Positions 8,505-63,450 of a stretch of DNA of 64,000 bases are shown here, piece by piece. The translations under genes were made by a program, and so were the position numbers. The notes beneath the pieces are model-generated. The model saw only the letters and a program-made list of their open reading frames with translations. It ran no database searches and was not told the DNA's origin. Source of the DNA: an uncultured Gammaproteobacteria bacterium (GTDB lineage Bacteria > Patescibacteriota > Patescibacteriia > Magasanikbacterales > UBA922); contig CAZQXB010000001.1 of the NCBI GenBank assembly GCA_964597575.1, positions 594,511-658,510 of the forward strand. Direction: 5' to 3'. Every line of letters starts with the position of its first letter. The first letter of the stretch is position 1.

Positions 8505-8506
8505 AT

Positions 8507-8875: not shown

Positions 8876-8876
8876 A

Positions 8877-39956: not shown

Positions 39957-39961
39957 ACAAT

Positions 39962-41910: not shown

Positions 41911-41917
41911 AGGAAAA

Positions 41918-44736: not shown

Positions 44737-44761
44737 AGATCTTAGGAAGAATCTTCCCTCT

Positions 44762-45511: not shown

Positions 45512-45570
45512 TTGGTTTAAATAACACACCCGGATGAGGGTGTGTTATTTTTACTCCATGTTTCACTTAA

Positions 45571-45990: not shown

Positions 45991-46006
45991 AAAAAATAAT
46001 ATAATT

Positions 46007-46681: not shown

Positions 46682-46682
46682 A

Positions 46683-47981: not shown

Positions 47982-48043
47982 AGATATGTGCCACACTGTA
48001 CCATGCTGCGTAGAGAAAATCAACTTGATTTTAAACTTACAGA

Positions 48044-48072
48044 TTGACAGGAGTCTCAAAAAATGCTACTAT
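48044..48072 (+). promoter_or_regulatory. Sigma70-like promoter TTGACA-17-TACTAT for the GC-rich 94-aa gene
   Basis: The hexamers are at 48044-48049 and 48067-48072. The ATG at 48087 is about 8 nt past the predicted start site. Confidence 0.45.
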
Positions 48073-48086
48073 TTCTGCTCAAGAAA

Positions 48087-48371
48087 ATGCCAACACAATC
48101 ACGGTTTAGCACCATCAGAGGTGCCCCATACACACCGCGCCCAGGAGATCGGATTCTCTGGGACAAAAGAAACCATGTCATCACAGTTCGTCCGGAAGGC
48201 TCGTCAGCTGCGGTTCTCGTGGACGGGAAGATGACTGTTTCGACCAAGGGAATTACCGGAACCGCAGCCATGAAGCTTATCGAGGAGCTTGCAAAGGCGA
48301 GCGGCAACGGCGTGCGGTTCGCACAGGAGGAGTACCTTACCGAAATCTACGAACTGCGCTCAAGCCCCTGA
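48087..48371 (+). CDS. 94-aa protein of unknown function on a GC-rich island
   Basis: MPTQSRFSTIRGAPYTPRPGDRILWDKRNHVITVRPEGSSAAVLVDGKMTV.... GC is about 56-58% against the AT-rich background, and there is no family match. Confidence 0.5.
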   Translation: MPTQSRFSTIRGAPYTPRPGDRILWDKRNHVITVRPEGSSAAVLVDGKMTVSTKGITGTAAMKLIEELAKASGNGVRFAQEEYLTEIYELRSSP

Positions 48372-48379
48372 ACGCTCTC

Positions 48380-48415
48380 CCTCAGGCCCGACCCTCGATT
48401 GGTCGGCGCCTGAGG
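48380..48415. terminator. GC-rich ~14-bp hairpin (cctcaggcccgacc...ggtcggcgcctgagg) without U-tract; possible terminator or 3' stabiliser
   Basis: Read from the sequence, between the convergent island gene and the NUDIX gene. Confidence 0.35.
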
Positions 48416-48436
48416 ACCCTATACCAAGCCAATATT

Positions 48437-48895
48437 TTAAACCCCTTTGGGGCTTTTTTCATTTATATGACGTTCAAACGAATACTGCCCTGCAAATTTT
48501 TTCACAGTCATATACACATTCTCTTTCAGCGCCTCCTCTTTCGTAAAAAATCGAGTTTCAACACACTCAGATGAAGGTGTAATGACCATGTCCGCTACAG
48601 TCGTGAGGTAGAACACATTTACCACCCACCGACCGGAATTTGGTGAACGCCCCGTAATAAAATAAAGGGGGAAATCCCCAACTGAAGTAACCACTAACCC
48701 CATTTCTTCTTTTACTTCTCGCACCAATCCTTCTGCAGGACTCTCACCAAAATCTAATCCTCCACCCGGAAAGTCCCACAATCCACTCTCTTCTTTACAG
48801 AGCAAAAAACGCCCTTCAGAATCTAAAATGAGAGCTTTGACACTCACCCGGTAAAAACAATTGGGGATATTCTCGTGTTCAAACATATTTTGCAT
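48437..48895 (-). CDS. NUDIX hydrolase
   Basis: Nudix box GGGLDFGESPAEGLVREVKEEMGL. Confidence 0.8.
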   Translation of the reverse strand: MQNMFEHENIPNCFYRVSVKALILDSEGRFLLCKEESGLWDFPGGGLDFGESPAEGLVREVKEEMGLVVTSVGDFPLYFITGRSPNSGRWVVNVFYLTTVADMVITPSSECVETRFFTKEEALKENVYMTVKKFAGQYSFERHINEKSPKGV

Positions 48896-48926
48896 GTACA
48901 CCTCCTAAGGTGTAACTAGAAAATTG

Positions 48927-49856
48927 TTAAGCTGATTCTAATACACTTTTCAAAAGAGGTACAATTTGCTTGCGCATAAGTACATTAGCCCTCACTGCTA
49001 CAGATTCTTGAAATGACACTTCCAATACCTGCTCAAGAAGAACTCTCGTTTTTTCATCTGGAGAGACAAAATAATTTTTACTCTCTTCAAGTTCAATCGT
49101 ATTTTGAAATATATAATCAAGTTTTTCCTTCTGCTGAATCTCTTGAAGAATTTGCACAATCTCTTCCCCTCTTTCCTCAATAAGCACCTTTGCACCAATC
49201 ATTTCAATCTGGGCAATTCCCATCTTTTTCTCCCCACAAGTAAATAGGACAAAATCCCCTTCAATTCGTTCTTTTAATTTTCCTCCTGGCATGTCTGACT
49301 TAGCTAGAAACAATTCTTTCCAGAAGTCTTCACCTAACTGGGCAATAGAGTTTAGCCGTGCAAATGCATTTCTATCACGATCCGTAGTTACCGTTGCTTT
49401 AAAATTCAATGTATTTGAAATAATAGCACCACAGATAAGAACGGCTGATTCTCGCGACATTTCAATCTGCTTATCAAAAAATCTCTCCGCAATAAGTGTT
49501 GCGGCCGACCCCACTAACTCTACCTGCACCCGGGCATTCGGAAAGGCATCAGCTCGATGCACTTTTCTGTGATCAATGACCTCAATCACTTTACCTAGTT
49601 CAATATGCCCATGCAGTGCCTGCGGTTCACTGGTATCAACTAAAACCACCTCATCATAGTCACTACTATCACTAACCACACTCGGAAAAGGGATATTGAA
49701 TCGTTTCAAAACATATTCCGCCTCTTCGTGTGGTTGACCCAAAATACCAACCGTTGCGAGTCGTTCAGTTTTCTGTAGAAACTCAGCATATGCAACGATT
49801 CCAGCCACCCCATCAAGATCTGGATTTACGTAACTTGTAATTAAAATGGGTTTCAT
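48927..49856 (-). CDS. DHH-family phosphoesterase (family II pyrophosphatase/NrnA-like)
   Basis: N-terminal NPDLDGVAGIVAYAEF (DHH motif I-II) and VIDHRKVH (motif III-like). Confidence 0.65.
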   Translation of the reverse strand: MKPILITSYVNPDLDGVAGIVAYAEFLQKTERLATVGILGQPHEEAEYVLKRFNIPFPSVVSDSSDYDEVVLVDTSEPQALHGHIELGKVIEVIDHRKVHRADAFPNARVQVELVGSAATLIAERFFDKQIEMSRESAVLICGAIISNTLNFKATVTTDRDRNAFARLNSIAQLGEDFWKELFLAKSDMPGGKLKERIEGDFVLFTCGEKKMGIAQIEMIGAKVLIEERGEEIVQILQEIQQKEKLDYIFQNTIELEESKNYFVSPDEKTRVLLEQVLEVSFQESVAVRANVLMRKQIVPLLKSVLESA

Positions 49857-49863
49857 ATAATGA

Positions 49864-50109
49864 TCATCTCAGAGCACATAGCAATTCCTTCTCTCCCTTG
49901 GTGAGCTGCTTTATGCGATACTCTTCCTTTTGAGCTAAAGAACGCGTACGAAATTTCTTACTATATACTAAACTGACGGGCAGTCGAGAGCGGGTATACC
50001 GAGCCCCTTTATTTCCAAAACTATGCTCCCTGATTCGACGAGGTATATTTGTCGTAATTCCTGTATATAAAGAATTATCAGCACAACGCAGTATATACAA
50101 AAAATACAT
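49864..50109 (-). CDS. GIY-YIG nuclease-family small protein (UPF0213-like)
   Basis: MYFLYILRCADNSLYTGITTNIPRRIREH ... ARYTRSR. Confidence 0.8.
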   Translation of the reverse strand: MYFLYILRCADNSLYTGITTNIPRRIREHSFGNKGARYTRSRLPVSLVYSKKFRTRSLAQKEEYRIKQLTKGEKELLCALR

Positions 50110-50122
50110 AGAGCAAGTATTT

Positions 50123-51094
50123 TTACTCTAAATTTTCAAGGTCTTTTCGAAAAGAAGGAAGTTTTTCTAACTCAAGAATTTTATGAAGAATAATCGCAAC
50201 ACCCTGCTCTGACTGTTCCAGATAGGCGTGCATCCGTTCTGCGCTCTCTTTTTCTTCTGCATCAAAAACCCCTTGTTCACGCATACCCTGTATCTCTTCT
50301 CGCACGCCTTGCATATAAGTTCTCGACTCTTCTTCAACCGCTTTTGCAATTCTCCGAGCATTGGCAATTGCCGCCTTATTAAAGCCTAAACTCTGAATTA
50401 CATTCCGCTCAGCTTCGGCTCCTAACCGAGAAGGTAGACCGTCAACAAATTCTCGCATTGATCCTTCTGATAACCGACCACCCTCGTCTTTGTTTTTCGC
50501 GCCCGTAGGTTCTACCACCGCAAGCTCACCTAAAACTCTTTGCATTTGAGGATCATCTGCATCATAAGCAACCGCAAGGTCTTTCCGAATGGTTGAAAGG
50601 AACTCTGCATCAAGCTCTTGAAGAACTGCGTCTTCCGAACGACCAGATTGGACTTTCAAAAAGAAGACGGTACGGATTCTCGCCACCAACTCTTTCAGAG
50701 ATAGTTCAGCATGTGTTTCTTCGTCAAAATACTCTTCATGGTCTGGGTCGAGTTCTTCTTTTTTCCGGGTATAAAAATCACCGAACTGTTCTTCCAAAAC
50801 AAAAGAGCTATCGTCATCAAAGCCGTAGTGTGCAAATACTGCCTCAAGATTCCTTGTGAGCACTCTGGAGTTTTCATTCGCGATGAACTCACTCGAGCTT
50901 GCATCAAAACTGCCAATATACTCTCGTACCTGAGCTCTCTCATTTTCAGAAAGTTTCCCATTAAAAAATTTCTGAATTCGATCCATGACCTGGTCTTCGA
51001 ATTCTTTATACAACAACTCAACCTGTACTCTTTCTTGCGCCTTTTCCTGCTCTTCAGTTCCAAACCAACCACCTCTCCCAGTCTCTCGTGACAT
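50123..51094 (-). CDS. Hypothetical acidic cytoplasmic protein
   Basis: 323 aa, E/D-rich and helical, with no family match. Confidence 0.45.
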   Translation of the reverse strand: MSRETGRGGWFGTEEQEKAQERVQVELLYKEFEDQVMDRIQKFFNGKLSENERAQVREYIGSFDASSSEFIANENSRVLTRNLEAVFAHYGFDDDSSFVLEEQFGDFYTRKKEELDPDHEEYFDEETHAELSLKELVARIRTVFFLKVQSGRSEDAVLQELDAEFLSTIRKDLAVAYDADDPQMQRVLGELAVVEPTGAKNKDEGGRLSEGSMREFVDGLPSRLGAEAERNVIQSLGFNKAAIANARRIAKAVEEESRTYMQGVREEIQGMREQGVFDAEEKESAERMHAYLEQSEQGVAIILHKILELEKLPSFRKDLENLE

Positions 51095-51192
51095 ATACGA
51101 CAGATGCTATAATTACAAAATACTTTTTAGAAATGTATTAATATAGTCTACCCCACCATCTCCTTTTAGCACAATATCAAATTTGGAGATGC

Positions 51193-51765
51193 TCATACCT
51201 CTAAAAGGTCAAATAATTCTCGTTCACATTTCTTTAAACTCGAATCTTTTCCATGTTTATACTCTTTAAATGCTTGCCAAAATCGTATGGTTTGAGGTTT
51301 CCTCCACGGTTTAAACACAATAGCAATCGGACAAAACTCTTTCCCACTCCATTCTTTTCGACCCCGAAACATATGCTGCGACACTCTTCCCCAATGCTGA
51401 AAGACTTGTAACTCTAGTGTACCCTTCCATTCCCACTGGCTACGTTCCGACCAATTTATAACGACTGCTTGGGAACGAATTTGGGGCAGGATATGCTCTT
51501 CGACATACTCTTTCCAAACAGGAGAATCTGAATAAACAAAAAGTAAATGCTTTCCTTTTGGGTACCACCTTTGCCTTACTAAAAAACCAAGCCTCTTCCC
51601 TTTTATAAAGTGGTAAAAAAGAAAGAAGATAATTACCGGAAAAAGAATGGCAAGAAAGACGAGAAAAAAGATCGTCACGAAGAAATCTTTCATTTTTCTT
51701 TGCAGTGACTGTTCGTGTGGCATAGAGCCTAGCGGGTTTACTTTTTTATTTCGATTATTTTTCAT
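51193..51765 (-). CDS. Hypothetical membrane protein
   Basis: One or two N-terminal TM helices (FFVTIFFLVFLAILFPVIIFFLFY) and a W-rich soluble domain. Confidence 0.45.
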   Translation of the reverse strand: MKNNRNKKVNPLGSMPHEQSLQRKMKDFFVTIFFLVFLAILFPVIIFFLFYHFIKGKRLGFLVRQRWYPKGKHLLFVYSDSPVWKEYVEEHILPQIRSQAVVINWSERSQWEWKGTLELQVFQHWGRVSQHMFRGRKEWSGKEFCPIAIVFKPWRKPQTIRFWQAFKEYKHGKDSSLKKCERELFDLLEV

Positions 51766-52177
51766 CCACGGTAATCTTTTTTAACACTCCTTTTCTTTTG
51801 ACAATATTCTTATAATCCCATTGTATAAGCTCTGCTTTTTTGAGCCAACGCTTGAGATCTTTCTTATTAATTTGTGACACATCAGCATATCGCATTTCTG
51901 CCGCCTTAAAGCTTCCTTCTTTTTGCAAATCTCTTTCTTTGAAAGATTGGCCGCTCCAAAAAAGTAACCGCACATTCCCCTTCAACTTGCTGTAGCCAAC
52001 GATAGGATTACCTTCTAAAAACCATACGGGGTGCGCATGCCATAATTTATTTTCTGACTTCGGCAAACTCCGAGTAATTTCTTCCGAGAGTACATCACAT
52101 ATTTCTTTATCCTCCTTGGAAAGAGCCTCGTTATACGCTTGAATATCTGGGGAAATTTTAGATGCTGTTTTTAGCAT
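51755..52177 (-). CDS. Hypothetical protein (possibly YdeI/DUF1801-like)
   Basis: 140 aa, overlapping the downstream gene by 11 nt. Similarity is weak. Confidence 0.35.
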   Translation of the reverse strand: MLKTASKISPDIQAYNEALSKEDKEICDVLSEEITRSLPKSENKLWHAHPVWFLEGNPIVGYSKLKGNVRLLFWSGQSFKERDLQKEGSFKAAEMRYADVSQINKKDLKRWLKKAELIQWDYKNIVKRKGVLKKITVDEK

Positions 52178-52308
52178 ACCAAAAGCAATTAGTTATGGAA
52201 CTATGAGGTATCATATCCTATTTGATTCAGAAAATATACCAGCTAGCTTATACCGCCTAAAAATGGCTTTATCATGTTTATTTTAGCACCACTTCTATTG
52301 CCTTTTTT

Positions 52309-52614
52309 GTGGCACTTTACCAGGCATTTAAGTTGCTTGGGTATATGGGGCGAAATGAAGTATCTTCACAAGCAGCGGTAAAAACCTTACGAACCATAAA
52401 GTACTGTGCGATAATTCTCGTCGCTTTTATTATAGGGGCTGAAGCCTACCTCGGTATTGTTCAGCGCAAAATTGAGGAAGATATTGCCGGCGGCGTAATG
52501 ATGGGTCTTGTTATGATTTTCGTTTCCGCCGTAGTTGGTACTGCTGCTGCGGTATTTGAAAGAACTTTACAAAACGCGGTGGATATAAAGTCTGAGAATG
52601 AGTTAACGGTTTAA
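52309..52614 (+). CDS. Small two-TM membrane protein
   Basis: GTG start with two hydrophobic helices. It may be DUF2975-like, but that is uncertain. Confidence 0.35.
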   Translation: MALYQAFKLLGYMGRNEVSSQAAVKTLRTIKYCAIILVAFIIGAEAYLGIVQRKIEEDIAGGVMMGLVMIFVSAVVGTAAAVFERTLQNAVDIKSENELTV

Positions 52615-52647
52615 AACTTTTCTTTCCATTCAAATTCAGTCTACAAA

Positions 52648-52685
52648 AAATACATAAGAGCACCGTACGGTGCTCTTATGTATTT
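52648..52685. repeat. Perfect 38-nt palindrome aaatacataagagcaccg-ta-cggtgctcttatgtattt (copy 1 of a repeated palindromic element)
   Basis: Read from the sequence. It shares the core ATAAGAGCACC...GGYGCTCTTAT and the flanks CAAAAA / TTGCGG with the copy at 62406-62443. Confidence 0.75.
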
Positions 52686-52830
52686 GCGGGGAATAAAAGA
52701 AAAAAATCGAATGGAATTCAAGGGATCTTGCCAGTAGAAGGAGGGGTTTGGGGAGGAATTCCGTCCGCTCCTTGGCCGTGGGTAAATGACGATTTTAAGT
52801 TTTTGAATGAGGTTGCAATACCTCATTCCG

Positions 52831-52862
52831 GAGCTCGTTTCAAGGTAGTCTGAAACGAGCTC
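52831..52862 (+). terminator. 12-bp perfect hairpin gagctcgtttca-aggtagtc-tgaaacgagctc followed by TGCTTTGG
   Basis: Read from the sequence. It is preceded by a second hairpin at 52806-52827. Confidence 0.4.
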
Positions 52863-52916
52863 TGCTTTGGCAGCAAATTCTTTTATTAGCAATTCACATT
52901 TTTAATCCAATAAACA

Positions 52917-53465
52917 CTACTTATAAAACAACTCATGGCTGCGAAGCTCCTCCTTAATGTCCAAATAATCAGGAAGAGCTTTTGCCACAAGTGCCCAGAA
53001 TTTTCTAGAATGGTTGAATTCTTTGAGATGGCACATTTCGTGAACGATAATATAATCTTGATATTTTGGTGCCAAAAATATAATTTTGTAGTTCAGATTT
53101 AAATTTTGCTTACCTGAACAGCTCCCCCATCGAGTCTTTTGATTTTTAATAAAAATTTTGTTGTATGAAAAACCGTACACTTTATTATAAAACTCAACTC
53201 TTTTCTCTACGAGAGAAAGGGCTTTATCCTTATTTTCTAAATAATCCTTGTGCGAGAAAGTACGAATAGCCTTACTATCCACGCTTTTGAAAAATTGAAT
53301 TTTATCCCACACCCATTGCTTTTTATCAGCAATAAATTTTTCAATCAGCGACAGCTCTACCCCCAAAGGACTGGTAACAACAACACTTCCATCACAATAC
53401 ACCGCAAGGCGCATTCGTTTCGCCCTTTTGCTTCTCTTTAGTTTGTAAGGAATCTTCTTCTCCAT
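52917..53465 (-). CDS. DUF45/YgjP-family zinc metallohydrolase
   Basis: WGSCS ... YIIVHEMCHLKEFNHS (HExxH). Confidence 0.75.
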   Translation of the reverse strand: MEKKIPYKLKRSKRAKRMRLAVYCDGSVVVTSPLGVELSLIEKFIADKKQWVWDKIQFFKSVDSKAIRTFSHKDYLENKDKALSLVEKRVEFYNKVYGFSYNKIFIKNQKTRWGSCSGKQNLNLNYKIIFLAPKYQDYIIVHEMCHLKEFNHSRKFWALVAKALPDYLDIKEELRSHELFYK

Positions 53466-53469
53466 AGTT

Positions 53470-56382
53470 CTAGAATTTCTTCGTGATGATGTCCACCAGT
53501 CTATTCAAGAATTTTGGAAAGTCTTTAAGTACAAATCGACCTTTATAATCTCTCAAAATCAATTCCTGCAAGGTTTGTTTTATATCCTTCACAAACACAT
53601 CCCGCTTTGAGGATTCCTGCCAACCACTATCGAGATCGTCTTCAATACGAATGCGCAACTCTTTTATAAATTCCTTTATCACATCCTCTTTTCCAGCCTC
53701 AACAAACTCTTGAGAAATGACATAGAGCGCGTATTCCTTTAGATCAAGCCCTAGATCCTTCGCCTCGTCTCCTTTCGTCTTGATATCGCTCATCAATTCC
53801 TCATATCGGCGTATTCGTTCGGCAAGGTCAATTTGATTCTGTTCAAACTCACGACGAATAGCGGTTAGCCGTTCGCTAAACTTCTGATACGCCGGATTTT
53901 CATCAAGATTGATAGAGATTTCCTGCTTGAGCATCTTCTCAAGGTTGAGAGCCTTTTCTTCTTCGTCCATTCCCTTGAGGCGTTCAAGCGTGTACAAATC
54001 ATTCACGCGAAGTTCTCTGAAATTCTTGGTGATTCCTTCGTAGTCGATGATATTGCTCTTTTGAATAAGCTCTTTAACTTTCTCCCCATATTCTTCAAGC
54101 AAATAGCGATCATCTTCGCTTCGGAATTCTTTCAAAAATGCCAGGTAAAAACTCGTCACCCATTCAAACGGACGAATATACTGCTTCAGGAATGGATCAG
54201 GCGAAAGAAACTCAAACAAACTCTTGAGCTTCATATACTTCTCAACAAAGTATTTCTGCTTGTCTTGATTATCGATGAAAATCTTGAGACATCGACGAAG
54301 ATTATCCATTGATGGGTCTTCAATATTCACGCCGGTAAATACCTTCATCACATCATTTAAGACATCAGTAAATCGCGCCTTGACTCGCTCAATATCAATC
54401 ATCGCCGAATCAATGACGTCTTCGTCAAAATCTAGAGCATCATAAAGATTCCTCGTAATGCCATAGTAGTCAATAATCTTTCCGGCTTCTTTGTTTTTAT
54501 ATACCCGATTCGTACGCGCAATAGCCTGCAAGAGGTTGTGGTCGCGAAGCGGCTTGTCGAGGTACATCACTTGCTCAATCGGCGCGTCAAAACCAGTGAG
54601 CAACATATCGCACACCAAAAGGAATTTAAGTGATGACTTTGAATCTTTGAATTTCTCAATGATTTGCTCTCGCTCACGTTTGCTCGTGTTGTACACCTTC
54701 AAATCATCCGCATCACTGTTTGGGTCGCCAGGCGAATACACTACCGCCGACCATTCAGCCGGAACCAATTTATCAAGTAGCTTTTTATACGTTGCCACGG
54801 CTTCACGGTCATATGCCACTATTTGCCCCTTAAAGCCGTTTGGCTCCACATAGAGCTTGTAATGCTCCACAATATCCCTTGCCACGGCTTCCATACGCTT
54901 AGGAAGCTTCACGAGCGCTGCTTTCTTACCATACTTCTTCACCAACTCGGTCTTTTGTTTGTCTGACAAATCTCCAGCAATCTCTTCAAACTGTTGATCA
55001 AGCTTTTCTTCATCAATAGAAAACTTTGAAAGACGCGCTTCGTAGGTAACAGGGATAGTCGCCCCGTCATCAATCGCTTGCTGGATAGAGTAGTAGTCCA
55101 AGTATCGCTTCCCATCACCTTCATAATTTCGGAATGTATTGGTATGCGTCTTATCCACCGGCGTTCCAGTGAATCCGAAGAAAAATGCTTTTTTGAACGC
55201 ATTACGCATGTTAATACCCGACACACCCTCGTCCCCTCGATGCGCCTCGTCAGAAAGCACAATCACATTCTCATCAAGATTTTCCACCTTGTCTCCAAGC
55301 TCAGCAAACTTCTGAATGGTCGTAATGAATATGCCTTTCTCCGGTGATTGAATTTTTTCTTCCAAATCTTTGCGCGAAGTGACACGAACAATATTTTTTC
55401 CACCAGCATTGGTAAATGTTTCAAATATTTGATCGTCCAAATCCACGCGGTCAACCAAAATAAATACCTTAGGGTTTTCCAGTTGTTTATTAAACCGTAG
55501 TTTCCATGCCGTGAAATACATCGTGAGCGTCTTGCCTGACCCTTGTGTGTGCCAAATAAGCCCTTGTCGTTTCTCTTTACTTACAACACGCTCAACAATT
55601 TTATTCGTCGCACGCATTTGCTGATAACGAGCAATTTTCTTCACCAATTTCTCCTTCTCTTTTTCAAATAAAATGAAATTTTGCACGATATCCAAAAAAT
55701 TCTCTTTAGAAAGAAGTGAGAAAAGCGACATCTCCAACTCTCCACCAAGCTCTTTTTCCATGTCTTCGTCGCGCCACTGGAGGAAGTATTGCTTTGGCGC
55801 GCCGGTTGCACCGTACACCGTTTTGAGCCCGTCGCTCGCGATATTGAAGCAGTTGGGAATAAACAACTTGCGAGCTACTTTTTCGTATCGCTTTATCTGG
55901 TCAATACCATTTTCAAAACTCACACCCTCCGAAGCCGTCGGGCTTTTGGCCTCAATATCTACAAGCGGAAGCCCGTTTACGAAAATCATAATATCCTGAC
56001 GTATGTTTTCCGTATCCCCCTCAAAATAGAATTGATTAGTAACAACAAATTGATTGTTTTCTGGATTATCGAAATCTACGATTTTATAATCGCGAAATAA
56101 TCCCGTTGCAGAATCTTTGAGGTTTATACCGTTACGAATTGCGTCAAGAAAAATTTGATTTGAGTCAATTTTATTTACTTCACGCAAAATACTTTTGGCG
56201 ACAGTATCATCAACGCTGTTTATTCTTTTAATAGCATCAAGTAATTGTGGTTTGATAGTATACTCACTCTCCAAATCACGGAGTTTGGCAAATTCCTCTG
56301 GTTTTATGTATTCAAAACCAAGCTTATCTTTAATAAACCTGATGATGTAATTTTCTACTGTAACTTGTTCATTGAATTTCAT
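53470..56382 (-). CDS. hsdR: Type I restriction enzyme R subunit
   Basis: ATG at 56382 (MKFNEQV), an N-terminal nuclease region, helicase motifs (QGSGKTLT, VLSDEAHR) and a C-terminal helical domain. The track ORF starts at an upstream TTG. Confidence 0.9.
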   Translation of the reverse strand: MKFNEQVTVENYIIRFIKDKLGFEYIKPEEFAKLRDLESEYTIKPQLLDAIKRINSVDDTVAKSILREVNKIDSNQIFLDAIRNGINLKDSATGLFRDYKIVDFDNPENNQFVVTNQFYFEGDTENIRQDIMIFVNGLPLVDIEAKSPTASEGVSFENGIDQIKRYEKVARKLFIPNCFNIASDGLKTVYGATGAPKQYFLQWRDEDMEKELGGELEMSLFSLLSKENFLDIVQNFILFEKEKEKLVKKIARYQQMRATNKIVERVVSKEKRQGLIWHTQGSGKTLTMYFTAWKLRFNKQLENPKVFILVDRVDLDDQIFETFTNAGGKNIVRVTSRKDLEEKIQSPEKGIFITTIQKFAELGDKVENLDENVIVLSDEAHRGDEGVSGINMRNAFKKAFFFGFTGTPVDKTHTNTFRNYEGDGKRYLDYYSIQQAIDDGATIPVTYEARLSKFSIDEEKLDQQFEEIAGDLSDKQKTELVKKYGKKAALVKLPKRMEAVARDIVEHYKLYVEPNGFKGQIVAYDREAVATYKKLLDKLVPAEWSAVVYSPGDPNSDADDLKVYNTSKREREQIIEKFKDSKSSLKFLLVCDMLLTGFDAPIEQVMYLDKPLRDHNLLQAIARTNRVYKNKEAGKIIDYYGITRNLYDALDFDEDVIDSAMIDIERVKARFTDVLNDVMKVFTGVNIEDPSMDNLRRCLKIFIDNQDKQKYFVEKYMKLKSLFEFLSPDPFLKQYIRPFEWVTSFYLAFLKEFRSEDDRYLLEEYGEKVKELIQKSNIIDYEGITKNFRELRVNDLYTLERLKGMDEEEKALNLEKMLKQEISINLDENPAYQKFSERLTAIRREFEQNQIDLAERIRRYEELMSDIKTKGDEAKDLGLDLKEYALYVISQEFVEAGKEDVIKEFIKELRIRIEDDLDSGWQESSKRDVFVKDIKQTLQELILRDYKGRFVLKDFPKFLNRLVDIITKKF

Positions 56383-56389
56383 AGTATTA

Positions 56390-57571
56390 CTATGGTTTTT
56401 TGTCCAAGTTCGCCACAAACCCTTCTTTTGATAAAATTTCTACAATCCCTCGCAAAAGATAGTTGTTTGCAAAAGCCACTGTATAAATCCTACCGTTTTC
56501 TTTGAGCGGCATGACCATCTTTTTTTCTTTCAACTTCGAGATAATACGAGACCTTTGCACTGATGAATCCTCATTCAACACCTTCTCCAAATCGCCGGCT
56601 TTTACTTGCATATCTTTTTGAGAGATTATAAATGTCAGAATCTTATATTCTCGATCAGTAATCCATTTATTCTCAAGAGAAAAACTAAAAACTGGTAACA
56701 AAATACTATTGATCAAATAATTTTGATCAAGCAATTTATCTATTTTTTCAATTTCAGCCTTTAGACCCGAGAATACATATTCGCACCATGCGATTGTTTT
56801 TTCTTGTTCTCCAGTATCCGCACCGGCAAGCATATCGTAATATTTTTGCCTATCCATACAAAACATTGCTGTTGGGTTCAAAATCGAACCCGTCTTCACC
56901 TGAAACCCCTGCTTAATGAGCATGGCATAGGTTAGTAACCGCACCAAACGGCCATTTCCATTATCAAACGGGTGAATCCAAGCAAAACGATGGTGTGCCA
57001 GTGCCATAACTAAGAGGTCATTCGCTTTTTCAGTCTTTTGATTTACAAAAGAAAGTAGTTCGTCAAAATAATTTGGTACTTGCAGGTATTCAGGTAAGAC
57101 AACCGAAGACCCTGTAATTTCAGGATTTACATTTCGAAGTTCACCGGGCCGCGCTGAACCTTCTCCTTCTGGTGGTGGAGTAAGATCTTTCGTTATGATT
57201 TTATGCACTTCTGATAAAATAGCCCTACTGATCTCGGTATCTTCTTTAATAGTCTTATGCAAAAATTGCAAAGCATTTTCAATATTATCAATTTCTCTAG
57301 AGCTTTCGTCTGTACGGGTTTTTCCTTGAATTTTTTTCTCCACGAATTCCGCCAGTGTTGTACGATTACCTTCTATTCGTGCCGAACCCAAACTTTCTAG
57401 TATATGAAAAATATCTTTCAATTGAAAAAAGATGTACGGTGGCACACCCACGCTAAAAATCCGTTTAGTGCGTAGTTCTTCAAGCTCAAAAATCAAAGTG
57501 GCAAGACGCGAGTTCCACTCTGGTTTTATAAGCTTAAGCGGTATTTCTTTGAATTCTCGTGTATTTTTCAT
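56390..57571 (-). CDS. Fic/DOC-family protein (AMPylase-like) with C-terminal winged-helix
   Basis: Fic motif HPFDNGNGRLVRLL. Confidence 0.85.
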   Translation of the reverse strand: MKNTREFKEIPLKLIKPEWNSRLATLIFELEELRTKRIFSVGVPPYIFFQLKDIFHILESLGSARIEGNRTTLAEFVEKKIQGKTRTDESSREIDNIENALQFLHKTIKEDTEISRAILSEVHKIITKDLTPPPEGEGSARPGELRNVNPEITGSSVVLPEYLQVPNYFDELLSFVNQKTEKANDLLVMALAHHRFAWIHPFDNGNGRLVRLLTYAMLIKQGFQVKTGSILNPTAMFCMDRQKYYDMLAGADTGEQEKTIAWCEYVFSGLKAEIEKIDKLLDQNYLINSILLPVFSFSLENKWITDREYKILTFIISQKDMQVKAGDLEKVLNEDSSVQRSRIISKLKEKKMVMPLKENGRIYTVAFANNYLLRGIVEILSKEGFVANLDKKP

Positions 57572-57708
57572 AAATTGATGATAGCATTATTTACAACATA
57601 CTACAATACTATTTAACATATACACATACAAAAGCCTTATTTTAAGCTATTTTATTACATATACTCTGTAGTATTATTTAACATTTCTCTAATAATGATT
57701 TAACATAT

Positions 57709-59013
57709 TCATGGGATCATTTTCCCAATCGCAGCAAGATGATCAGTTCTCACTTGTCCGCTTAATAAGTCTTGCATCAGGCCTTTTTTGAGGAGAGTAA
57801 ATTTTTCTTTTAATTTTTTATTGACCAAAATCTTTTCATCGACTGCGGAAAGAATTTCCGCAATTTCTTTTTGTTCATCTTCTGTTGGAATCGGGATATA
57901 TACCTGCTCCAAGCTTCCTATAGGCAACTGGGGCTGAGCTGAGCCGGAGACGATTTCTTTATACTTTCGCTTCAACATATCACTCTTCATTAAATGATAT
58001 AGGAAGACTGCCTCGACGCCGTCAAAAGCTCTTAATAAAACCATGCCTGAATTAATTCTTATATTTTCGAAGGTAACATTTTTATCGTAATAAGCAACGT
58101 TTCCTACGGTACCTCTCGTGGTCAACACAACATCTTCCCTTTGAAGCCTTCCCTTTCTTAACGCTTGATCCTTTTCTCTTGATATGAACTGCAATTCGTT
58201 AAATAAAAACTTATCGTCTTTAATGTTCTTATTATTCAGGAACAGACAATAACCCCCACTTGTGAGATAGGGGTCAATAAAATCATGGCCGTGTGGGTAA
58301 TTAACACCGCGATCACCATCAATTATTTCTATAGGTGCATCTTTTAACTTTAAAACCTCCCACTCTTGAGGAATCTGCCCGATTTTTGTTTCTTTAAATT
58401 TTGTATGCCCAATCCCGCGAGTAAAGAGCTGTTGCATCAGTCCGCGTTTGAGTTTTTCTGTCGTCTCAATCACTTCCTGCGTTTTCGCGATATCCTCATC
58501 CACCACACCTAAAATCTCTGCAATCTTTTGCTGTTCTTTGATTGGAGGAATAAGAACTTCAATTTGAGTTTTTATTACAGATGGTCGCACCTCCTTTATG
58601 GTGCTACCAGAGGAAAGTTTGTGCAGAAGATTTTTCTTACTTAGAAGTAAATAATACAAATAAGTATTAAGAAGGTCATCATTTGGTATAATCCCCGCAA
58701 TTCCTTGCTTTGTAGTAACAGGAACATCCGCAATACCAACTTCGCCAATAGTAGCCCCGAACGACAGGATTACGCTTCCAGTCGGCCACAGTTTTGCAGA
58801 TGATTTTTGGAGACCTTCATCCGTAAGTGTGTCCTTTGTTTGTTTAATATGTGGTTTTATATCATTAACCACAACCCAAGGAATCTTGCCGCCAAAATAT
58901 TCATCTTTTGAACGCAAAGGTGTCCCTCCATCACCAATATCAGCGAGAAAATTGCCCAATTCTCCAAATTTCCATCCATTCGGAATATTCTGTTGCGTTT
59001 TAGTGATTGGCAT
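57709..59013 (-). CDS. hsdS: Type I R-M specificity subunit with two target-recognition domains
   Basis: Two TRD-like halves separated and followed by conserved coiled-coil spacers (LKRGLMQQLF / LKKGLMQDLL). The ATG is at 59013. Confidence 0.85.
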   Translation of the reverse strand: MPITKTQQNIPNGWKFGELGNFLADIGDGGTPLRSKDEYFGGKIPWVVVNDIKPHIKQTKDTLTDEGLQKSSAKLWPTGSVILSFGATIGEVGIADVPVTTKQGIAGIIPNDDLLNTYLYYLLLSKKNLLHKLSSGSTIKEVRPSVIKTQIEVLIPPIKEQQKIAEILGVVDEDIAKTQEVIETTEKLKRGLMQQLFTRGIGHTKFKETKIGQIPQEWEVLKLKDAPIEIIDGDRGVNYPHGHDFIDPYLTSGGYCLFLNNKNIKDDKFLFNELQFISREKDQALRKGRLQREDVVLTTRGTVGNVAYYDKNVTFENIRINSGMVLLRAFDGVEAVFLYHLMKSDMLKRKYKEIVSGSAQPQLPIGSLEQVYIPIPTEDEQKEIAEILSAVDEKILVNKKLKEKFTLLKKGLMQDLLSGQVRTDHLAAIGKMIP

Positions 59014-59677
59014 ATTCTTCAATTAACTTTCTCGCGTATGCACGACCAAAATATTTTATGACAACAAACCCGAAACATAGGTACAGACCGTAGCCGATCA
59101 AACAGATTACTCCAACGGTGCGCAGCAGACTCAATGGCTCGGAAAGAAAAATAAGAAGTAGTGACCCGAAAATTCCGCTCAAAGAAGCTCCCCAGAGGTT
59201 TCTGACGAATCCATACTCGATATTATGTTGAAGTACCAAGTAGCCATCTTTTACCTTCCCGATTATCACGCGGATGGAATCCTTGATTCGCTTACGCGCA
59301 TCTTTTTCGTTCTTGTGTTCGTCATCTGCGGTTGGCAGCTGAATTGATAAATCTCTTTTGACCGCCTGACGGATCTGGTCTTTAAACTCGCTCGAATATT
59401 CATCATCAGAGTACATAAGGAAGCTTGTTGTTGGAAAATAAAGTTGCTTCTTAAACAAAAAGTCCTCAAAAATTTTACTCGGTATGCGAACAAAATACTG
59501 GTTGAAGGTATAAAGTAGAATGGTTGACAGCCCAACATTTCCGACAGCAGAAGCGATTAAGGAATCAATATTCCAGATGTTGTTGAGGTAAAAATATTGA
59601 AAAACAAACCACGGAATAAGTCCGATGATAGTCGGAAAGATTCTCGCTATGAGGTTGTAAGTGGAGAATATTTTCAT
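59000..59677 (-). CDS. Hypothetical 4-TM membrane protein embedded in the R-M operon
   Basis: 225 aa with two N-terminal and two C-terminal TM helices around a charged cytoplasmic middle. The gap to the upstream gene is 2 nt, and it overlaps hsdS by 14 nt. Confidence 0.5.
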   Translation of the reverse strand: MKIFSTYNLIARIFPTIIGLIPWFVFQYFYLNNIWNIDSLIASAVGNVGLSTILLYTFNQYFVRIPSKIFEDFLFKKQLYFPTTSFLMYSDDEYSSEFKDQIRQAVKRDLSIQLPTADDEHKNEKDARKRIKDSIRVIIGKVKDGYLVLQHNIEYGFVRNLWGASLSGIFGSLLLIFLSEPLSLLRTVGVICLIGYGLYLCFGFVVIKYFGRAYARKLIEEYANH

Positions 59678-59679
59678 AT

Positions 59680-60534
59680 CTATACAGCGAGTGTGTCGTA
59701 TGAGCGAGTACCGTCCGCTCCAAATTCAATAAGAATATGCCCGTCACTACGGGTAGTGAGCACTTTTCTCGTACTTCCTCCAAAATTTACCCCGTCTCCT
59801 AATACATGACCTGCATATTTCTGTGCCATACCTCCTTGTGTGTCATACATTATGTCTTTATCGGAAATCACCACGACCTCTGGAAAGCAATTCTCGAAAA
59901 TTGATTCGTGATATCCATTATCCCTTCCGTGATGCGGGGCAATAAGTACATCTGTTGAAAGCATGTGCGTTTTCACCGCATCTTTTTGAAGAATCTTTTC
60001 CCAAGCCACTCGCTCTAAATCACCAGCGACACAGAGCTTTGATCCTCCAAACTCCACAAAGAGCATTTGACTAAGGTGATTCGTGTTAAGATCTCCATCC
60101 AAATCACTTTGTTCTAGGTGATAAGAATGGGTTGTGTACACAGGAGTGAAATCAACAGCGTTGCCCGTGTAAGTGTCTTTCAGATGGCACACATGTTGGA
60201 GCGCAAAAGTGATTTCATCCTTGTGATTCTTCAGTTCCTGACTAGTGATATTTTTTGGAAGTCGAGTAGTCCATATATCAACTTTCTTTCTTAGGTCTGG
60301 CAACCATGAAAAATGGTCATGGTCGTAGTTTGTGATAGTTAGGTTACCCAAACGAGGTTTTCCGTTTGCGTTCTTTGGAAGTATATTTTTTGAGACTATA
60401 AATTCCACCGGAGAGAATCCTTCGCTTTCACCACCGCAATCTATAAGTCGTGCATGGCTAGGTTGTTCATTAGGGAAAACCAATATAGATTGTGCCGCAC
60501 CAACATCAAACACCGCAATTTGTAATTTACTCAT
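59680..60534 (-). CDS. Metallo-beta-lactamase-fold hydrolase embedded in the R-M operon
   Basis: LIDCGG, NYDHDHF (HxHxDH-like), APHHG and ISDKD. Confidence 0.65.
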   Translation of the reverse strand: MSKLQIAVFDVGAAQSILVFPNEQPSHARLIDCGGESEGFSPVEFIVSKNILPKNANGKPRLGNLTITNYDHDHFSWLPDLRKKVDIWTTRLPKNITSQELKNHKDEITFALQHVCHLKDTYTGNAVDFTPVYTTHSYHLEQSDLDGDLNTNHLSQMLFVEFGGSKLCVAGDLERVAWEKILQKDAVKTHMLSTDVLIAPHHGRDNGYHESIFENCFPEVVVISDKDIMYDTQGGMAQKYAGHVLGDGVNFGGSTRKVLTTRSDGHILIEFGADGTRSYDTLAV

Positions 60535-60536
60535 AT

Positions 60537-62222
60537 TTAATATTTTAATTCTGATAAATAATTAGCGACCTTTTTATCAATTGCTTCGCGGGTTTTTTCA
60601 ATCTCCCTCACTTCACTCCACACCGTTTTTACATCCACCACCTCTTCATCTTCGCCATTTTCTACATAGCGACGTACGTTGAGATTGAACTCGTTTTCTT
60701 CGAGCTCCTTAATATCCACCACGCGAGCGTATTTTTCAATATCTCGGTAGCTTTCAAATGCTGACACCATTTTCTCGATATCCTTCTTGCGTAGGCGGTT
60801 TTGATTTTTTCCTTCCTCGTAATCTTGCTCGGCATCAATGATAAGGATTTTATCCTTATGATTCTCTGGCTTGTTTTTGTTGAATATCACAATTGCCGCC
60901 GGAATACCTGTACCATAGAAAAGTTTTGCAGGAAGAGCGATAATGGCTTCTATAAGATCGTTCTTGATAAGTTCCTCACGGATACGACCTTCGGCACCTC
61001 CACGGAAAAGCACGCCATGCGGAAGCACGATGCCGGCGCGGCCGTTTTCGTTCATTGACTTCACCATGTGGAGCACAAAAGCGTAGTCGGCTTTTTTTGC
61101 CGGAGGCATTTCGTAGCCCGCCACTCGTCCATGTTTGTCATTCTTGAATATCTCATACTCCCACTCGCTTATGGAGTAAGGCGGATTGGCAACACAAATA
61201 TCAAATGTCTTGAGCGAGCCGTCAGGATTGAGAAACTTTGGATCAGCAAGTGTATCTCCGCGTTGAATGTTGGCACTATCAAGTCCATGGAGGAACATGT
61301 TGATTTTCGCAATCGCGTATGTCCCGATGTTTATTTCCTGTCCGTAGAGGTAGAGTGAGCGAGCTTTCTTTTCTCCTGCGCTCAGTCTGAGATGGTGATA
61401 GGCCTCCAAGAGGAAACCACCCGAGCCGACCGCCATGTCGTAGATGTGGTCTTTCTCGTGGGGCTTAAGGATACTGACGATCACACGCTCAACTTCCCGC
61501 GGAGTATAAAATGATCCTCCTTTTTTTCCGGCGTCCGCGGCGAACTGCGCAATTAAATACTCGTAAGCATCGCCAAGTAAATCAGTGCTTATGTAATTGT
61601 CACCAAAATTATACTTAGAAAAATGATTGATTAACTTTTGCAGAACCTCGTTTGGAAATTTGTCTTTGTTGGCAAAATCAAGGTCATCAAAAATCTTGTC
61701 CAGCTTCGGACTGTTGGCATTGGTTAGCTTATCAAAAATTTCGTTGAGCTTGTGGCCGATACCTTCGGCTTGTTTTTGTATGACTTCCCATCGACATTCC
61801 TTTGGAACCTGAAACTTGTGATTGTGATCCGCCTTGGCTATTTCTTCATCATGATATTCCTCAAGAATTTTTTTGTATTCTTCGTCCCACACATCACTAA
61901 TTCGTTTATAGAAAAGAAGACCAAAAATATATTTTTTATAATCTGCACTATCTATTCTGTCGCGCAAAATATCTGCACTACTCCAAAGGAATTGCTTAAG
62001 CTGTGTTAGGTCCATTTTTCCTTCATCATCAGTCAGTGGCGCACCGAGATCTTTGACAATGCTTTTGTCATTAGCTATTTTTTCCAAATCTTCAGGACGA
62101 TATTTTCTGTCACCACGGGGACCAACACGCATAGGAGTAATCAAACCTTTTTTCTCCCAATTCCTCAATGTGTCTTTATCTAGACCAAAAATCTTTGCCA
62201 CCTCACTAATCGAAAGTAACAT
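60537..62222 (-). CDS. hsdM: Type I R-M N6-adenine DNA methyltransferase with N-terminal MerR/excisionase-type HTH fusion
   Basis: N-terminal ISEVAKIFGLDKDTLRNWEKKGLITP (HTH_17-like), then an HsdM_N-like helical region, the AdoMet motif DMAVGSGGFL and the catalytic NPPY (VANPPYS). Confidence 0.9.
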   Translation of the reverse strand: MLLSISEVAKIFGLDKDTLRNWEKKGLITPMRVGPRGDRKYRPEDLEKIANDKSIVKDLGAPLTDDEGKMDLTQLKQFLWSSADILRDRIDSADYKKYIFGLLFYKRISDVWDEEYKKILEEYHDEEIAKADHNHKFQVPKECRWEVIQKQAEGIGHKLNEIFDKLTNANSPKLDKIFDDLDFANKDKFPNEVLQKLINHFSKYNFGDNYISTDLLGDAYEYLIAQFAADAGKKGGSFYTPREVERVIVSILKPHEKDHIYDMAVGSGGFLLEAYHHLRLSAGEKKARSLYLYGQEINIGTYAIAKINMFLHGLDSANIQRGDTLADPKFLNPDGSLKTFDICVANPPYSISEWEYEIFKNDKHGRVAGYEMPPAKKADYAFVLHMVKSMNENGRAGIVLPHGVLFRGGAEGRIREELIKNDLIEAIIALPAKLFYGTGIPAAIVIFNKNKPENHKDKILIIDAEQDYEEGKNQNRLRKKDIEKMVSAFESYRDIEKYARVVDIKELEENEFNLNVRRYVENGEDEEVVDVKTVWSEVREIEKTREAIDKKVANYLSELKY

Positions 62223-62405
62223 ACTTTATATACTATCTTTTTAATATTTCATATGTTATCATAGGTTCATTGTTTCCGTCAAACTTTTTACAAAAATTCA
62301 TAAGTTTTCATAGGTTAGAGGGTTTTTACCTCTTGCCATCCTCCGCCCCACTGAGGTGGGAACCTTCCGGTTCCCAAACCCCTGTTCGAATCCACTCTAC
62401 CCAAA

Positions 62406-62443
62406 AATTATATAAGAGCACCATGAGGCGCTCTTATATAATT
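62406..62443. repeat. Palindromic element copy 2: aattatataagagc-accatgaggc-gctcttatataatt
   Basis: 14-bp perfect arms with the same ATAAGAGC core and CAAAAA / TTGCGG flanks as copy 1. Confidence 0.75.
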
Positions 62444-62950
62444 GCGGTGTGTATTGGACGAAGTTCGAATGTATTTCGGGAAAAATCCGCAGGATTTTGA
62501 CTGATTCGCACGCGCGGAGCGCGTGGTGGCTTTGACCCAAATCGTACGCTCCGATTGCCTGGTGAAGCGAACCAATGCGCCTCGGACACGCTCGCGGACT
62601 CGCGTGTGCAAAAGCCAAAAAAATTTCCTTGCATTTTTCTCGCGTCTCCTCCCCCCACCCCTCCGCCGCGAAGCGGAAAAAGAAATGGAAAGGAAATTTT
62701 TTGGTTTTGCTTCGCCGTTTCAGTCTCCAAAAAGAGCATCTCTATTTTATCACTTTTGATATGCTCTTTTCTCTGCCTTCACGGCGACCGAGGCGCACCT
62801 CCTATCCGCGTTCGGTGGTAACTCGGTACTCCGCGAACCACGCACAAGTGCCTACGCATAGCCCGCTCGCATTCGCTCGCGCTGGCTGCTTCGGCATTGT
62901 GCGTGTTCGCTCGGTGGCTTCGTTGGAGTAGGTGGTAACTCTAAAAAGAA

Positions 62951-63048: not shown

Positions 63049-63450
63049 CTAACTCGATTTAATTTGAAAATTGTACATTCCCATTCCGCACACACCCTGT
63101 ATTTTTTCGCCAGATTTTGGAGTGCCAAGGTCAATCACTTCTTCGCCAGATGGTTGTAATATTTTTTGAAAACCTGTCGAGCGGATAACGAGTGATGCAG
63201 AGCAATCGTATGTGCCGTTTGTCTTTACAATAAGTTTTGTAGGTAGGTTCGGTTGTATAATCGATTGGCGTGGCGAGTACCCACCCTTCGCATCCACGGT
63301 GACATATTGCACACCGTCTTTTACTTCAACATTTTGAGATTGCGAGACAGCACCATTTTCGGAAGAAGTAGGTTTTTCAGACACAAAATACAGCGTTCCA
63401 CCAATGATAACGATGCTGATGATAATGGAAATGATTGTGTTCTTTTGCAT
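63049..63450 (-). CDS. Membrane-anchored cupredoxin-like (Cupredoxin_1-type) protein
   Basis: N-terminal TM, a beta-sandwich-like domain with Cys (YDCSASL) and C-terminal GVCGMGMY. Confidence 0.45.
   Translation of the reverse strand: MQKNTIISIIISIVIIGGTLYFVSEKPTSSENGAVSQSQNVEVKDGVQYVTVDAKGGYSPRQSIIQPNLPTKLIVKTNGTYDCSASLVIRSTGFQKILQPSGEEVIDLGTPKSGEKIQGVCGMGMYNFQIKSS

Follow-up and report, generated by a model that had tools for sequence, protein, structure and literature searches.

Terminator-like palindromes at the borders of a type I restriction-modification module in a Patescibacteria chromosome: probable parts of att-like joints in a serine-recombinase-associated island

Introduction

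Why should two near-identical palindromes stand almost 10 kb apart, one at each edge of a type I restriction-modification (R-M) operon? The question is raised by a 64-kb stretch of the Patescibacteria contig CAZQXB010000001.1 (positions 594,511 to 658,510; hereafter the window). A first-pass annotation had reported a palindromic element at 52648–52685 and a second at 62406–62443, coordinates that we confirm. It had read the DNA between them as an inserted cassette and offered attachment-site-like (att-like) sequences, dispersed repeats and operators as possible identities for the palindromes. We find that the palindromes themselves are ordinary and that the modular system to which they point, associated with a large serine recombinase (LSR), is the more interesting discovery. 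The palindromes are most likely transcription terminators, to judge from their build and placement, and it is their flanks that would carry the information.

Bacteria of the candidate phyla radiation (CPR, or Patescibacteria) have tiny genomes and few recognised mobile elements, yet there is clear exchange of defence genes among them. Type I R-M systems on Patescibacteria genomic islands have already been surveyed, without a description of the island borders (PMC12455944).

Results

Two palindromes within a longer, composite repeat

Within the window the pattern ATAAGAGCRCC-N3-8-GGYGCTCTTAT has two exact matches, at 52654–52679 and 62412–62437, and it is not matched once in 100 dinucleotide-preserving shuffles. 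Copy 1 (H1, 52648–52685) is a perfect 38-bp palindrome with 17-bp arms and the loop GTAC; copy 2 (H2, 62406–62443) is a 38-bp palindrome with a single A.C mismatch. Two stem positions differ between the copies, and each has changed on both sides with pairing kept (A-T to T-A, and C-G to T-A). As first described, the copies are direct repeats that enclose a unit of about 9.7 kb (start-to-start spacing 9,758 nt). The distances of about 230 and 185 bp to the nearest operon genes were also correct: H1 lies 231 nt from the stop codon of a YgjP-like (DUF45) gene and H2 lies 183 nt from the start of hsdM.

The repeat is longer than first noted. Positions 52629–52719 align with 62385–62477 at 73% identity over 93 columns, and the island thus has at both ends the direct repeats (93 nt) that would be looked for in att sites. 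This unit of about 93 nt is composite and consists of three parts: a left flank (L), the hairpin (H) and a right flank (R), numbered here by copy.

The arrangement is not an assembly chimera, because independent Logan unitigs show the junctions at both palindromes at 100% identity. One unitig (L011) corresponds to window positions 41193–52677 and another (L012) to 52656–62473; all other names from L001 to L150 denote compared contigs and loci from elsewhere. Breaks between unitigs fall within palindrome 1 and, at the other end, 30 nt inside the repeat that adjoins palindrome 2 on its right, and one independent unitig crosses the junction between H2 and R2.

The right flank of copy 2 is the end of a copper-resistance module

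R2 is the exact terminus of a separate mobile element. Contigs L001–L006 match the window at 99.8–99.9% from position 64000 down to 62436–62444 and then continue into three different flanks; with the window included, at least four different right-hand flanks adjoin this module. In every one of these six contigs that is long enough, an inverted copy of 62444–62720 is found across the copper (Cu) genes. The Cu genes therefore lie between perfect 277-bp inverted repeats, whose outer ends read GCGGTGTGTATTGG... The right-hand repeat occupies 62444–62720 (plus strand, as delimited by comparison with L001–L006), and R2 is its first ~53 nt (62444–62496).

The gene block between these repeats is CsoR-CopA-YncE-like-HMA/DsbD-cupredoxin. 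On the minus strand of the window it contributes a cupredoxin-like gene (63049–63450, assigned by Pfam) and a partial HMA/DsbD_2 gene, which runs from 63469 to the window end at 64000 (assigned by Pfam and the gene tables of L001–L010). The cupredoxin-like protein has the identical sequence in more than 100 assembly blocks. A 101-aa open reading frame (ORF) in the 277-bp repeat (62434–62739) was considered as a possible protein gene and rejected; its sequence looks like non-coding DNA in translation, and it shows no relationship to the ORF next to copy 1.

This result changes how the outer flanks, first described as CAAAAA...TTGCGG around both palindromes, are to be understood. The flanks are present, but TTGCGG at copy 2 is for the most part the terminus of the Cu module, which ends exactly at 62444, and the GCGG belongs to that module and not to the palindrome.

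It also bears on the proposal that the ~93-nt unit is a dispersed element of the repetitive extragenic palindromic (REP) or miniature inverted-repeat transposable element (MITE) type, or some other repeated palindrome, whose placement at the R-M island is incidental. The unit is indeed a long imperfect palindrome with outer TTCGAA boxes, and a third, weaker L-hairpin unit (TTCAGTCTCCAAAAAGAGCAT...ATGCTCTTTT) lies on the minus strand within the Cu module at 62717–62775. However, all three occurrences fall within 52.6–62.8 kb. Just two full copies exist in 64 kb, both at module borders, and the remaining 52 kb of the window holds none. A scan of 241 million metagenome records for hairpin plus flank returned four chance matches and no real one, and scans of viral contigs for the hairpin unit returned no match. 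Nor does the unit appear to move as a whole: between a third and a half of copy 2 belongs to an element that moves without the rest (the right third travels with the Cu module without L and H), and no target-site duplication is visible. We consider a dispersed repeat improbable. In a plasmid collection we found no match for the Cu module end or for the R-M island.

R-type termini accompany a family of large serine recombinases

The first-pass annotation had found no integrase or transposase. Inside the window this is true: by Pfam, 30 large ORFs beyond those of the R-M operon are housekeeping genes, and no LSR is encoded. It does not hold beyond the Cu module in other contigs, where an LSR (Resolvase, Recombinase and Zn_ribbon_recom domains) starts 138 nt past the far Cu repeat in all five contigs that reach this point. 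Judging from these contigs, a serine recombinase is probably encoded just outside the window, past the Cu module, and by analogy with L143 and L150 a tRNA-Ser may follow past position 64000.

The LSR linked to the Cu module is one of a very large and highly conserved family. We found 5,649 CPR proteins at E<=1e-100, the best 120 of the 5,649 being 83–98% identical, and P0124 is a 97% homologue. The homologues vary in their C-terminal ends and in length (494–625 aa). The LSR gene sits in a unit of its own, with near-perfect 120–133-bp inverted repeats that overlap its 3' coding end. LSR genes lie at 3213–4775 in L003, at 2555–4186 and ~9830–11236 in L143, and at 10001–11656 in L150.

R2 belongs to a family of sites that bound other cargo. 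Its first ~53 nt recur as outward-facing cargo module ends in L143–L149, where the LSR is 91% identical, and in L150 (LSR 92% identical); individual R-type sites were found again in L143, L146, L007 and L150. Termini of this type (GCGGTGTNTNTTGRACRAAGTTCGAA) surround an EcoRI-type R-M module in L146 (124 to 2736), an MmeI-type module in L143 (4333–9567) and, as part of 204-bp perfect inverted repeats, a DpnII-type R-M plus AAA_13 module in L150 (4135–9970).

The LSR unit itself has an R terminus on one side and the 3' end of a tRNA-Ser gene on the other: tRNA-Ser(cga) in L143 (11309–11400) and tRNA-Ser(gct) in L150 (11600–11692). The reverse complement of this tRNA-Ser end therefore occupies a position equivalent to that of R. 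At the first LSR of L143, the tRNA-Ser side is a degenerate tRNA-Ser-like copy. The two kinds of sequence are built alike, R sites as GCGG, 16 nt and TTCGAA, and real tRNA-Ser ends, in reverse complement, as GCGG, 11 nt and TTCGAA. The structural model for serine integrases places the outer recognition motif 5 bp further inward in attB than in attP half-sites (PMC3783163). We infer that R is a half-site for the LSR, carried by the element and patterned on the tRNA-Ser end; the 5-bp shift is support for this, not proof.

Integron-type attC sites, which separate gene cassettes, were also considered. The units are imperfect palindromes of attC-like length (~90 nt) and stand between successive gene blocks. 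However, the window and the related loci yielded no tyrosine integrase, and the associated recombinase is a serine enzyme. The supposed cassettes are 6–10-kb operons with promoters of their own, and R-type sites form inverted pairs around modules, unlike attC. Of all the identities considered here, we give this one the least credence.

The order of left box, hairpin and R terminus recurs in other loci

The left flank, first noted as CAAAAA, in fact reaches left to a TTCGAAT/TTCAAAT box. L1 (TTCAAATTCAGTCTACAAA, 52629–52647, plus strand) starts 15 nt past the stop codon of a DUF2975 gene and contains a degenerate box that resembles a tRNA T-loop and acceptor 3' end. L2 (TTCGAATCCACTCTACCCAAA, 62385–62405, plus strand) aligns with L1 and contains a box like the 3' end of tRNA-Ser. 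The L motif TYCASTCTNC..AAAAA occurs four times in the window against 0.24 expected.

One parallel comes from L059, a Magasanikbacteria metagenome-assembled genome (MAG). Here a real tRNA-Ser(tga) is followed by ATATAAGAGCACCC-TTTT-GGGTGCTCTTATAT-TTGCGGAGAG, the last being the TTGCGG side, and hairpin and flanks are clearly like those of the window. Indeed, L2 and H2 together align with the T-loop, the acceptor 3' end and the terminator of this tRNA gene. Two LSR-bearing loci have joints of equivalent layout. In L143 (4260–4360), cTTCGAATCTCTCCCAAc is followed after an interval by the hairpin AATATGAAAAATTGGGG ATAC ACCCCATTTTTTCATATT, a single T and the terminus GCGGTGTTTTTTGAACGAAGTTCGAAC. 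In L150 (4066–4135), the order is CGGTTCGAATCCCACACTCTCTCGCA, 10 nt, the hairpin AAAACAGAGC TAAC GCTCTGTTTTT, 7 nt and the terminus GCGGTGTGTATTGG, and the L box nearly duplicates the 3' end of tRNA-Ser(gct), which is intact at that locus. When L1, L2, L143 and L059 are aligned, TTC.AAT is invariant, and the hairpin position and TTTGCGG.G stand in register. On the strength of these alignments, the order of tRNA-Ser-3'-like box, terminator hairpin and R terminus is a recurring type of joint.

The likeness to L143 extends to the left of H2. The 68 nt at 62337–62404 (minus strand) align locally with a degenerate tRNA-Ser/Sec-like region adjoining the L143 joint with a score of 20.5, against a shuffle mean of 8.9 (sd 1.5), and this score is reached by none of 2000 shuffles. 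The L143 region itself is a weak tRNA-Sec match (19 bits, E = 0.32). As for the origin of the hairpin, we considered whether it might be the collapsed remnant of the inverted repeats of the LSR unit; this is suggestive by eye for the L143 hairpin and unsupported for the window hairpins.

The R-M operon is a horizontally mobile module with a presumably decayed left end

At the foot of H1 lies R1 (52686–52719, plus strand), a degenerate R-type site of the form GCGG, 16 nt and (A)TCGAAT..., recognised by its likeness to R2 and by the same spacing as in the L143 and L150 termini. In fixed register, 22 of its 34 positions are identical to R2 (62444–62477), with an empirical P of ~2e-5, and no other place in the window matches R2 as well as R1 does. 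We presume from this likeness that R1 is the decayed terminal site of the left end of the R-M module.

All genes of the module are on the minus strand, and most of the first gene list, DUF45-hsdR-fic-hsdS-4TM-MBL-hsdM, survives a Pfam search. The operon comprises hsdM with an N-terminal MerR-type helix-turn-helix (HTH) (60537–62222; N6_Mtase, HsdM_N, MerR_1), hsdS (57709–59022; Methylase_S), a Fic-domain accessory gene (56390–57571; Fic), hsdR (53470–56418; HSDR_N, SWI2_SNF2, ResIII and T1R_D3-like) and, as its last gene, that of the YgjP-like metallopeptidase (52917–53465; PF01863, E = 1.4e-43). The labels '4TM' and 'MBL' are not borne out: the two ORFs between hsdS and hsdM (59000–60534 in all; 59000–59677 with 225 aa and 59680–60534 with 284 aa) have no Pfam match at E<=1e-3. 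L142 has ORFs of 225 and 300 aa, of equal or similar length, in this slot.

Relatives of this operon keep the order hsdM-(variable genes)-hsdS-(variable genes)-hsdR-ygjP, and the slot that holds Fic in the window holds ThsB-TIR, Bro-N, NYN or KTSC genes instead. HsdM homologues that are 84–93% identical come from organisms labelled Parcubacteria, Paceibacterota, Uhrbacteria, Magasanikbacteria and Taylorbacteria, in differing chromosomal contexts, and these labels place the window in a CPR/Patescibacteria genome. In L138 the operon follows tRNA-Trp, in L142 it lies between dus and an unrelated gene, in L137 it comes immediately after an LSR gene, and in L139–L141 it is found at other places again. 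It is near an LSR three times. DNA homology to L137 and L138 is limited to 52737–62319, just inside both ~93-nt units. The idea that the palindromes mark the boundary of an inserted cassette with att-like sites thus stands in part: the repeats are at the edges of a horizontally mobile module and their flanks are att-like, but the hairpin itself is shaped like a terminator.

Homology to relatives begins with a conserved 3' non-coding segment of the module at 52737–52804 (plus strand), which includes GGAGGGGTTTGGGGAGGAATTCC (52740–52762). This segment matches three places in L138, two of which are the inverted repeats around the L138 R-M island. That island is bounded by 154-bp inverted repeats, and between it and tRNA-Trp lies an unannotated LSR-like ORF (7998–9467, minus strand) that overlaps the tRNA gene and is 44% identical to the Cu-linked LSR over 501 aa. 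In the window, an inverted partner of the segment is found at 62359–62383; it is a weak 25-nt motif whose score is reached by 44 of 2000 shuffles (P ~0.02). For an empty-site comparison we sought relatives of the 323-aa protein encoded in the left flank, and found no homologue besides the protein itself; for the YgjP ORF, no record with the exact sequence was found.

Two further observations concern these loci. The L138 type I R-M island carries Thoeris-like ThsA/ThsB genes. A G-rich motif, GGAGGGGTT(T)GGGGAGGAATTCC, is present in the window both in the R-M 3' non-coding segment (52740–52762) and in the Cu repeat (62647–62664), and three times in L138 (~9650–9682, 18554–18619 and 20598–20663).

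The hairpins resemble intrinsic terminators

Both hairpins have the shape of an intrinsic terminator on the minus strand: stems of 15–17 bp (17 in H1, 16 in H2), a GC core and a T-run, which reads TTTTTTG in H1 and TTTTTGGG in H2. In a 101-nt context, H1 folds with −36.4 kcal/mol (z = −8.6 against shuffled sequence) and H2 with −35.8 kcal/mol (z = −6.1). A simple terminator scanner overlooked both hairpins; its maximal stem takes in the first T residues. The window contains about ten more strong hairpins that combine A-tract, GC-cored stem and T-tract in this way but have unrelated cores, and H therefore resembles the intrinsic terminators of this organism. Placement agrees as well. H1 follows the YgjP stop codon. 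H2 comes after the Cu genes, which are on the minus strand, and after the repeat that ends their module, and it precedes the hsdM promoter. From its position and form, H1 is likely to act as intrinsic terminator for both the R-M operon and the convergent DUF2975 gene.

Are the palindromes then simply two ordinary terminators of shared ancestry, one perhaps copied with neighbouring DNA, with no role in recombination or at borders? Their shape, their position downstream of minus-strand transcription units and the like-built hairpins elsewhere in the window all fit this explanation. So does the core TAAGAGCNCC..GGNGCTCTTA, which in a scan of GTDB genomes is a generic terminator in more than 119 unrelated genomes among the matches listed. 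Moreover, homologous R-M operons in L139–L142 do without flanking repeats. Three facts are left unexplained: a mobile element that ends precisely at the base of H2, the homology of the sequence at the foot of H1 to this Cu terminus, and the return of the L-hairpin-R order beside R-type termini in L143 and L150. Although this is the strongest competitor of the joint explanation, we regard it as unlikely.

Hairpins with the TAAGAGCNCC core also occur directly after tRNA genes, sometimes between two convergent tRNA genes, in several unrelated phyla (L031, L035, L045, L051, L063, L069 and L075). The Chlamydiae MAG JABDEO01 has a ~90-bp palindromic repeat family of its own (GCATTGGGGTCAGGCCTGACACTATGACACTT TAAGAGCGCC...) on many contigs (L019, L032, L038, L042, L053, L058, L077, L078, L080, L095, L101, L109, L111 and L128), which is unrelated to the window units save for the searched core. 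Between ygjP and palindrome 1, at 52828–52865, there is a further hairpin, with a 13-bp stem (GAGCTCGTTTCA...TGAAACGAGCTC) and without a T-run.

A separate dyad at the hsdM promoter is the better operator candidate

The palindromes had also been proposed as operators for a common regulator, with the HTH of the HsdM fusion, which is of MerR type, as a candidate. Perfect dyad symmetry and the position of one copy 183 nt upstream of hsdM speak for this. The proposal fails in comparison with relatives: L137, L138, L139 and L142, whose HTH-HsdM genes are 79–93% similar, do not have the palindrome and share other dyads, CCTATGAnAACnTATGAA and CCTATGATAACATAGG, at the hsdM promoter. Copy 1, moreover, sits past the 3' end of the operon. 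We judge an operator role of the palindromes to be very improbable.

The promoter itself offers an alternative. A promoter-like site is predicted at 62250–62316 (minus strand), with the box AACCTATGAAAAnnTATGAA, a −35 element TTGACG and the dyad ACCTATGATAACATAKG over the −10 element. Five loci have this promoter in common, with the box AACCTATGAAAAnnTATGAA, −35 TTGACA/G and a dyad ACCTATGATAACATAGG over −10. Because the other four loci are without the 38-bp palindrome, the HsdM HTH is better matched to these promoter dyads, which on this comparison are likely to be the autoregulatory operator of the MerR-HTH::HsdM fusion.

Other features of the window

Elsewhere in the window, an AdoCbl-II (cobalamin) riboswitch lies at 44506–44605 (minus strand; 42 bits, above the Rfam threshold), and the 861-aa ORF downstream of it (41918–44503) has no Pfam match. 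At 11464–14904 (minus strand), a 1,146-aa Big_7-domain protein contains long Gly-rich repeats from tandem GGTGGAGC-type DNA repeats (13591–13793). Two ClpB-like AAA+ paralogues (2415–5144, plus strand, and 40243–41925, minus strand) account for the longest inverted DNA repeats of the window (4308–4615 against 40682–40989). An ORF at 38679–39968 (minus strand) resembles a TrwB/TraG-type coupling protein and stands amid housekeeping genes.

Discussion

What, then, are the two palindromes? The explanation that we favour, and hold to be probable with a good deal of reserve, is that they are terminator hairpins embedded in the att-like joints of an LSR-associated modular island. Two homologous ~93-nt L-H-R joints would separate the host chromosome, the type I R-M module (~52686–62405) and the Cu module (62444 onward). 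From left to right, the window would read as host chromosome up to DUF2975, the joint half L1-H1, the R-M module between R1 and L2, then H2, and finally the Cu module from R2, followed by the LSR and probably a tRNA-Ser beyond. The borders of the modules, the exact terminus of the Cu module at H2, the R family and the recurrence of the joint are direct observations. The action of the LSR on R sites would supply the mechanism.

In such a mechanism, R would be an element-borne recombination half-site, derived from or mimicking the tRNA-Ser 3' end, and L plus H would together be an incomplete duplicate of the 3' end of a tRNA-Ser gene and the terminator behind it. The joints would be the scars of LSR-type recombination events that stacked modules side by side. 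Each hairpin would stop the transcription of one module from entering the next: H1 would end the R-M operon, and H2 would guard the autoregulated promoter of hsdM against read-out from the end of the Cu module. The R1 and L2 ends would have decayed, and the R-M module would therefore probably be an old and now immobile passenger.

Several points weigh against this explanation. The first concerns the flanks. R1 is just 65% identical to R2, and chance scores of 20–21 of 34 occur elsewhere in the window. ARAGORN finds no intact tRNA in the 64 kb, and neither ARAGORN nor Rfam recognises L or R as tRNA-like, so that their derivation from a tRNA depends on short alignments. The partial tRNA copies of L143 and L150 stand in the opposite orientation to the intact tRNA-Ser, unlike the direct repeats of classical att sites. 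The second concerns the hairpins. Those of the L143 and L150 joints are unrelated in sequence, and the homology between H1 and H2 needs an explanation of its own, be it duplication or carriage by a module. At its other insertion sites, the Cu module has an R end without an L-H unit next to it, so that the hairpin is not an obligatory partner of R. The third concerns the R-M module. Clear terminal inverted repeats were not found for it, the sole candidate being the weak 25-nt match described above, and in L139–L142 the R-M operons have neither flanking repeats nor an LSR. Finally, we saw neither a recombination product nor an empty site or a circular form.

If the joints are recombination scars, they define a testable vehicle for the exchange of defence genes among CPR bacteria, with one conserved LSR and recombinase-free modules that share a 50-nt end. 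Going further, we offer tentatively, as an idea that may well prove wrong, that the system is a cargo shuttle shared among CPR/Patescibacteria. A conserved LSR unit, docked at tRNA-Ser and bounded by its 120–133-bp inverted repeats, would move and stack recombinase-free modules (R-M, Cu) that are themselves bounded by inverted R-type pseudo-tRNA-Ser half-sites, and each joint would both insulate its neighbours and provide the next landing pad. Were the joints indeed recombination scars, the 50-nt end sequence could be used to locate module borders in metagenomes. Such an origin would also explain why near-identical Cu and R-M modules appear across many CPR samples, and why short-read assemblies break exactly at these islands.

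We found no description of the L-hairpin-R arrangement or of such LSR modules in the searchable literature, and several known systems share some of its features. Nearest in function are the composite islands of the staphylococcal cassette chromosome (SCC) type and tandem genomic islands at tRNA sites. In SCC islands, integration-site repeats mark every joint, some modules have no recombinase, and the recombinase is itself a large serine recombinase. Like the island described here, SCC composites (SCCmec/ACME/COMER and psiSCC, with Ccr) line up cargo modules side by side, copper resistance among them, with repeats at the joints. Staphylococcal composite islands with copper modules have been described (PMC7029739; bioRxiv 10.1101/336396). 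Here, by contrast, the host is a CPR bacterium, no rlmH/orfX target was found, the joints are tRNA-Ser-3'-like with a terminator hairpin, and the modules are bounded by long inverted repeats (53–277 bp) where SCC has short direct repeats.

Genomic islands and tandem arrays at tRNA 3' ends offer a second parallel, with partial tRNA 3' copies at their borders, stacked islands and a recombinase gene beside the tRNA (tRNA-Ser in L143 and L150, tRNA-Trp in L138). Our island differs in that the window holds no intact tRNA, L143 and L150 have their partial copies in inverted orientation, the enzyme is a serine and not a tyrosine recombinase, and the Cu module is found also at places without a tRNA-like flank.

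Tn4451 (TnpX) and Tn5397 (TndX), transposons with relaxed target choice, also use a large serine recombinase and several target sites, comparable with the four right flanks of the Cu module. Their recombinase is encoded inside the element, and they have no 200-bp terminal inverted repeats; here, the LSR occupies its own repeat-bounded unit outside the cargo module. Integrons likewise place an imperfectly palindromic recombination site between successive cargo units, but use another class of recombinase, small promoterless cassettes and attC sites in direct repeat.

The hairpins share with intrinsic terminators the GC-core stem, the 4-nt loop, the T-run with its opposite A-tract and the position after operons. 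Ordinary terminators, however, share no 93-nt homology with one another, nor do mobile elements end directly against them. What sets the system apart from SCC and tandem tRNA islands is the phylum, the tRNA-Ser-like target, the long inverted R-type ends, an LSR in a unit of its own and the hairpin at the joint.

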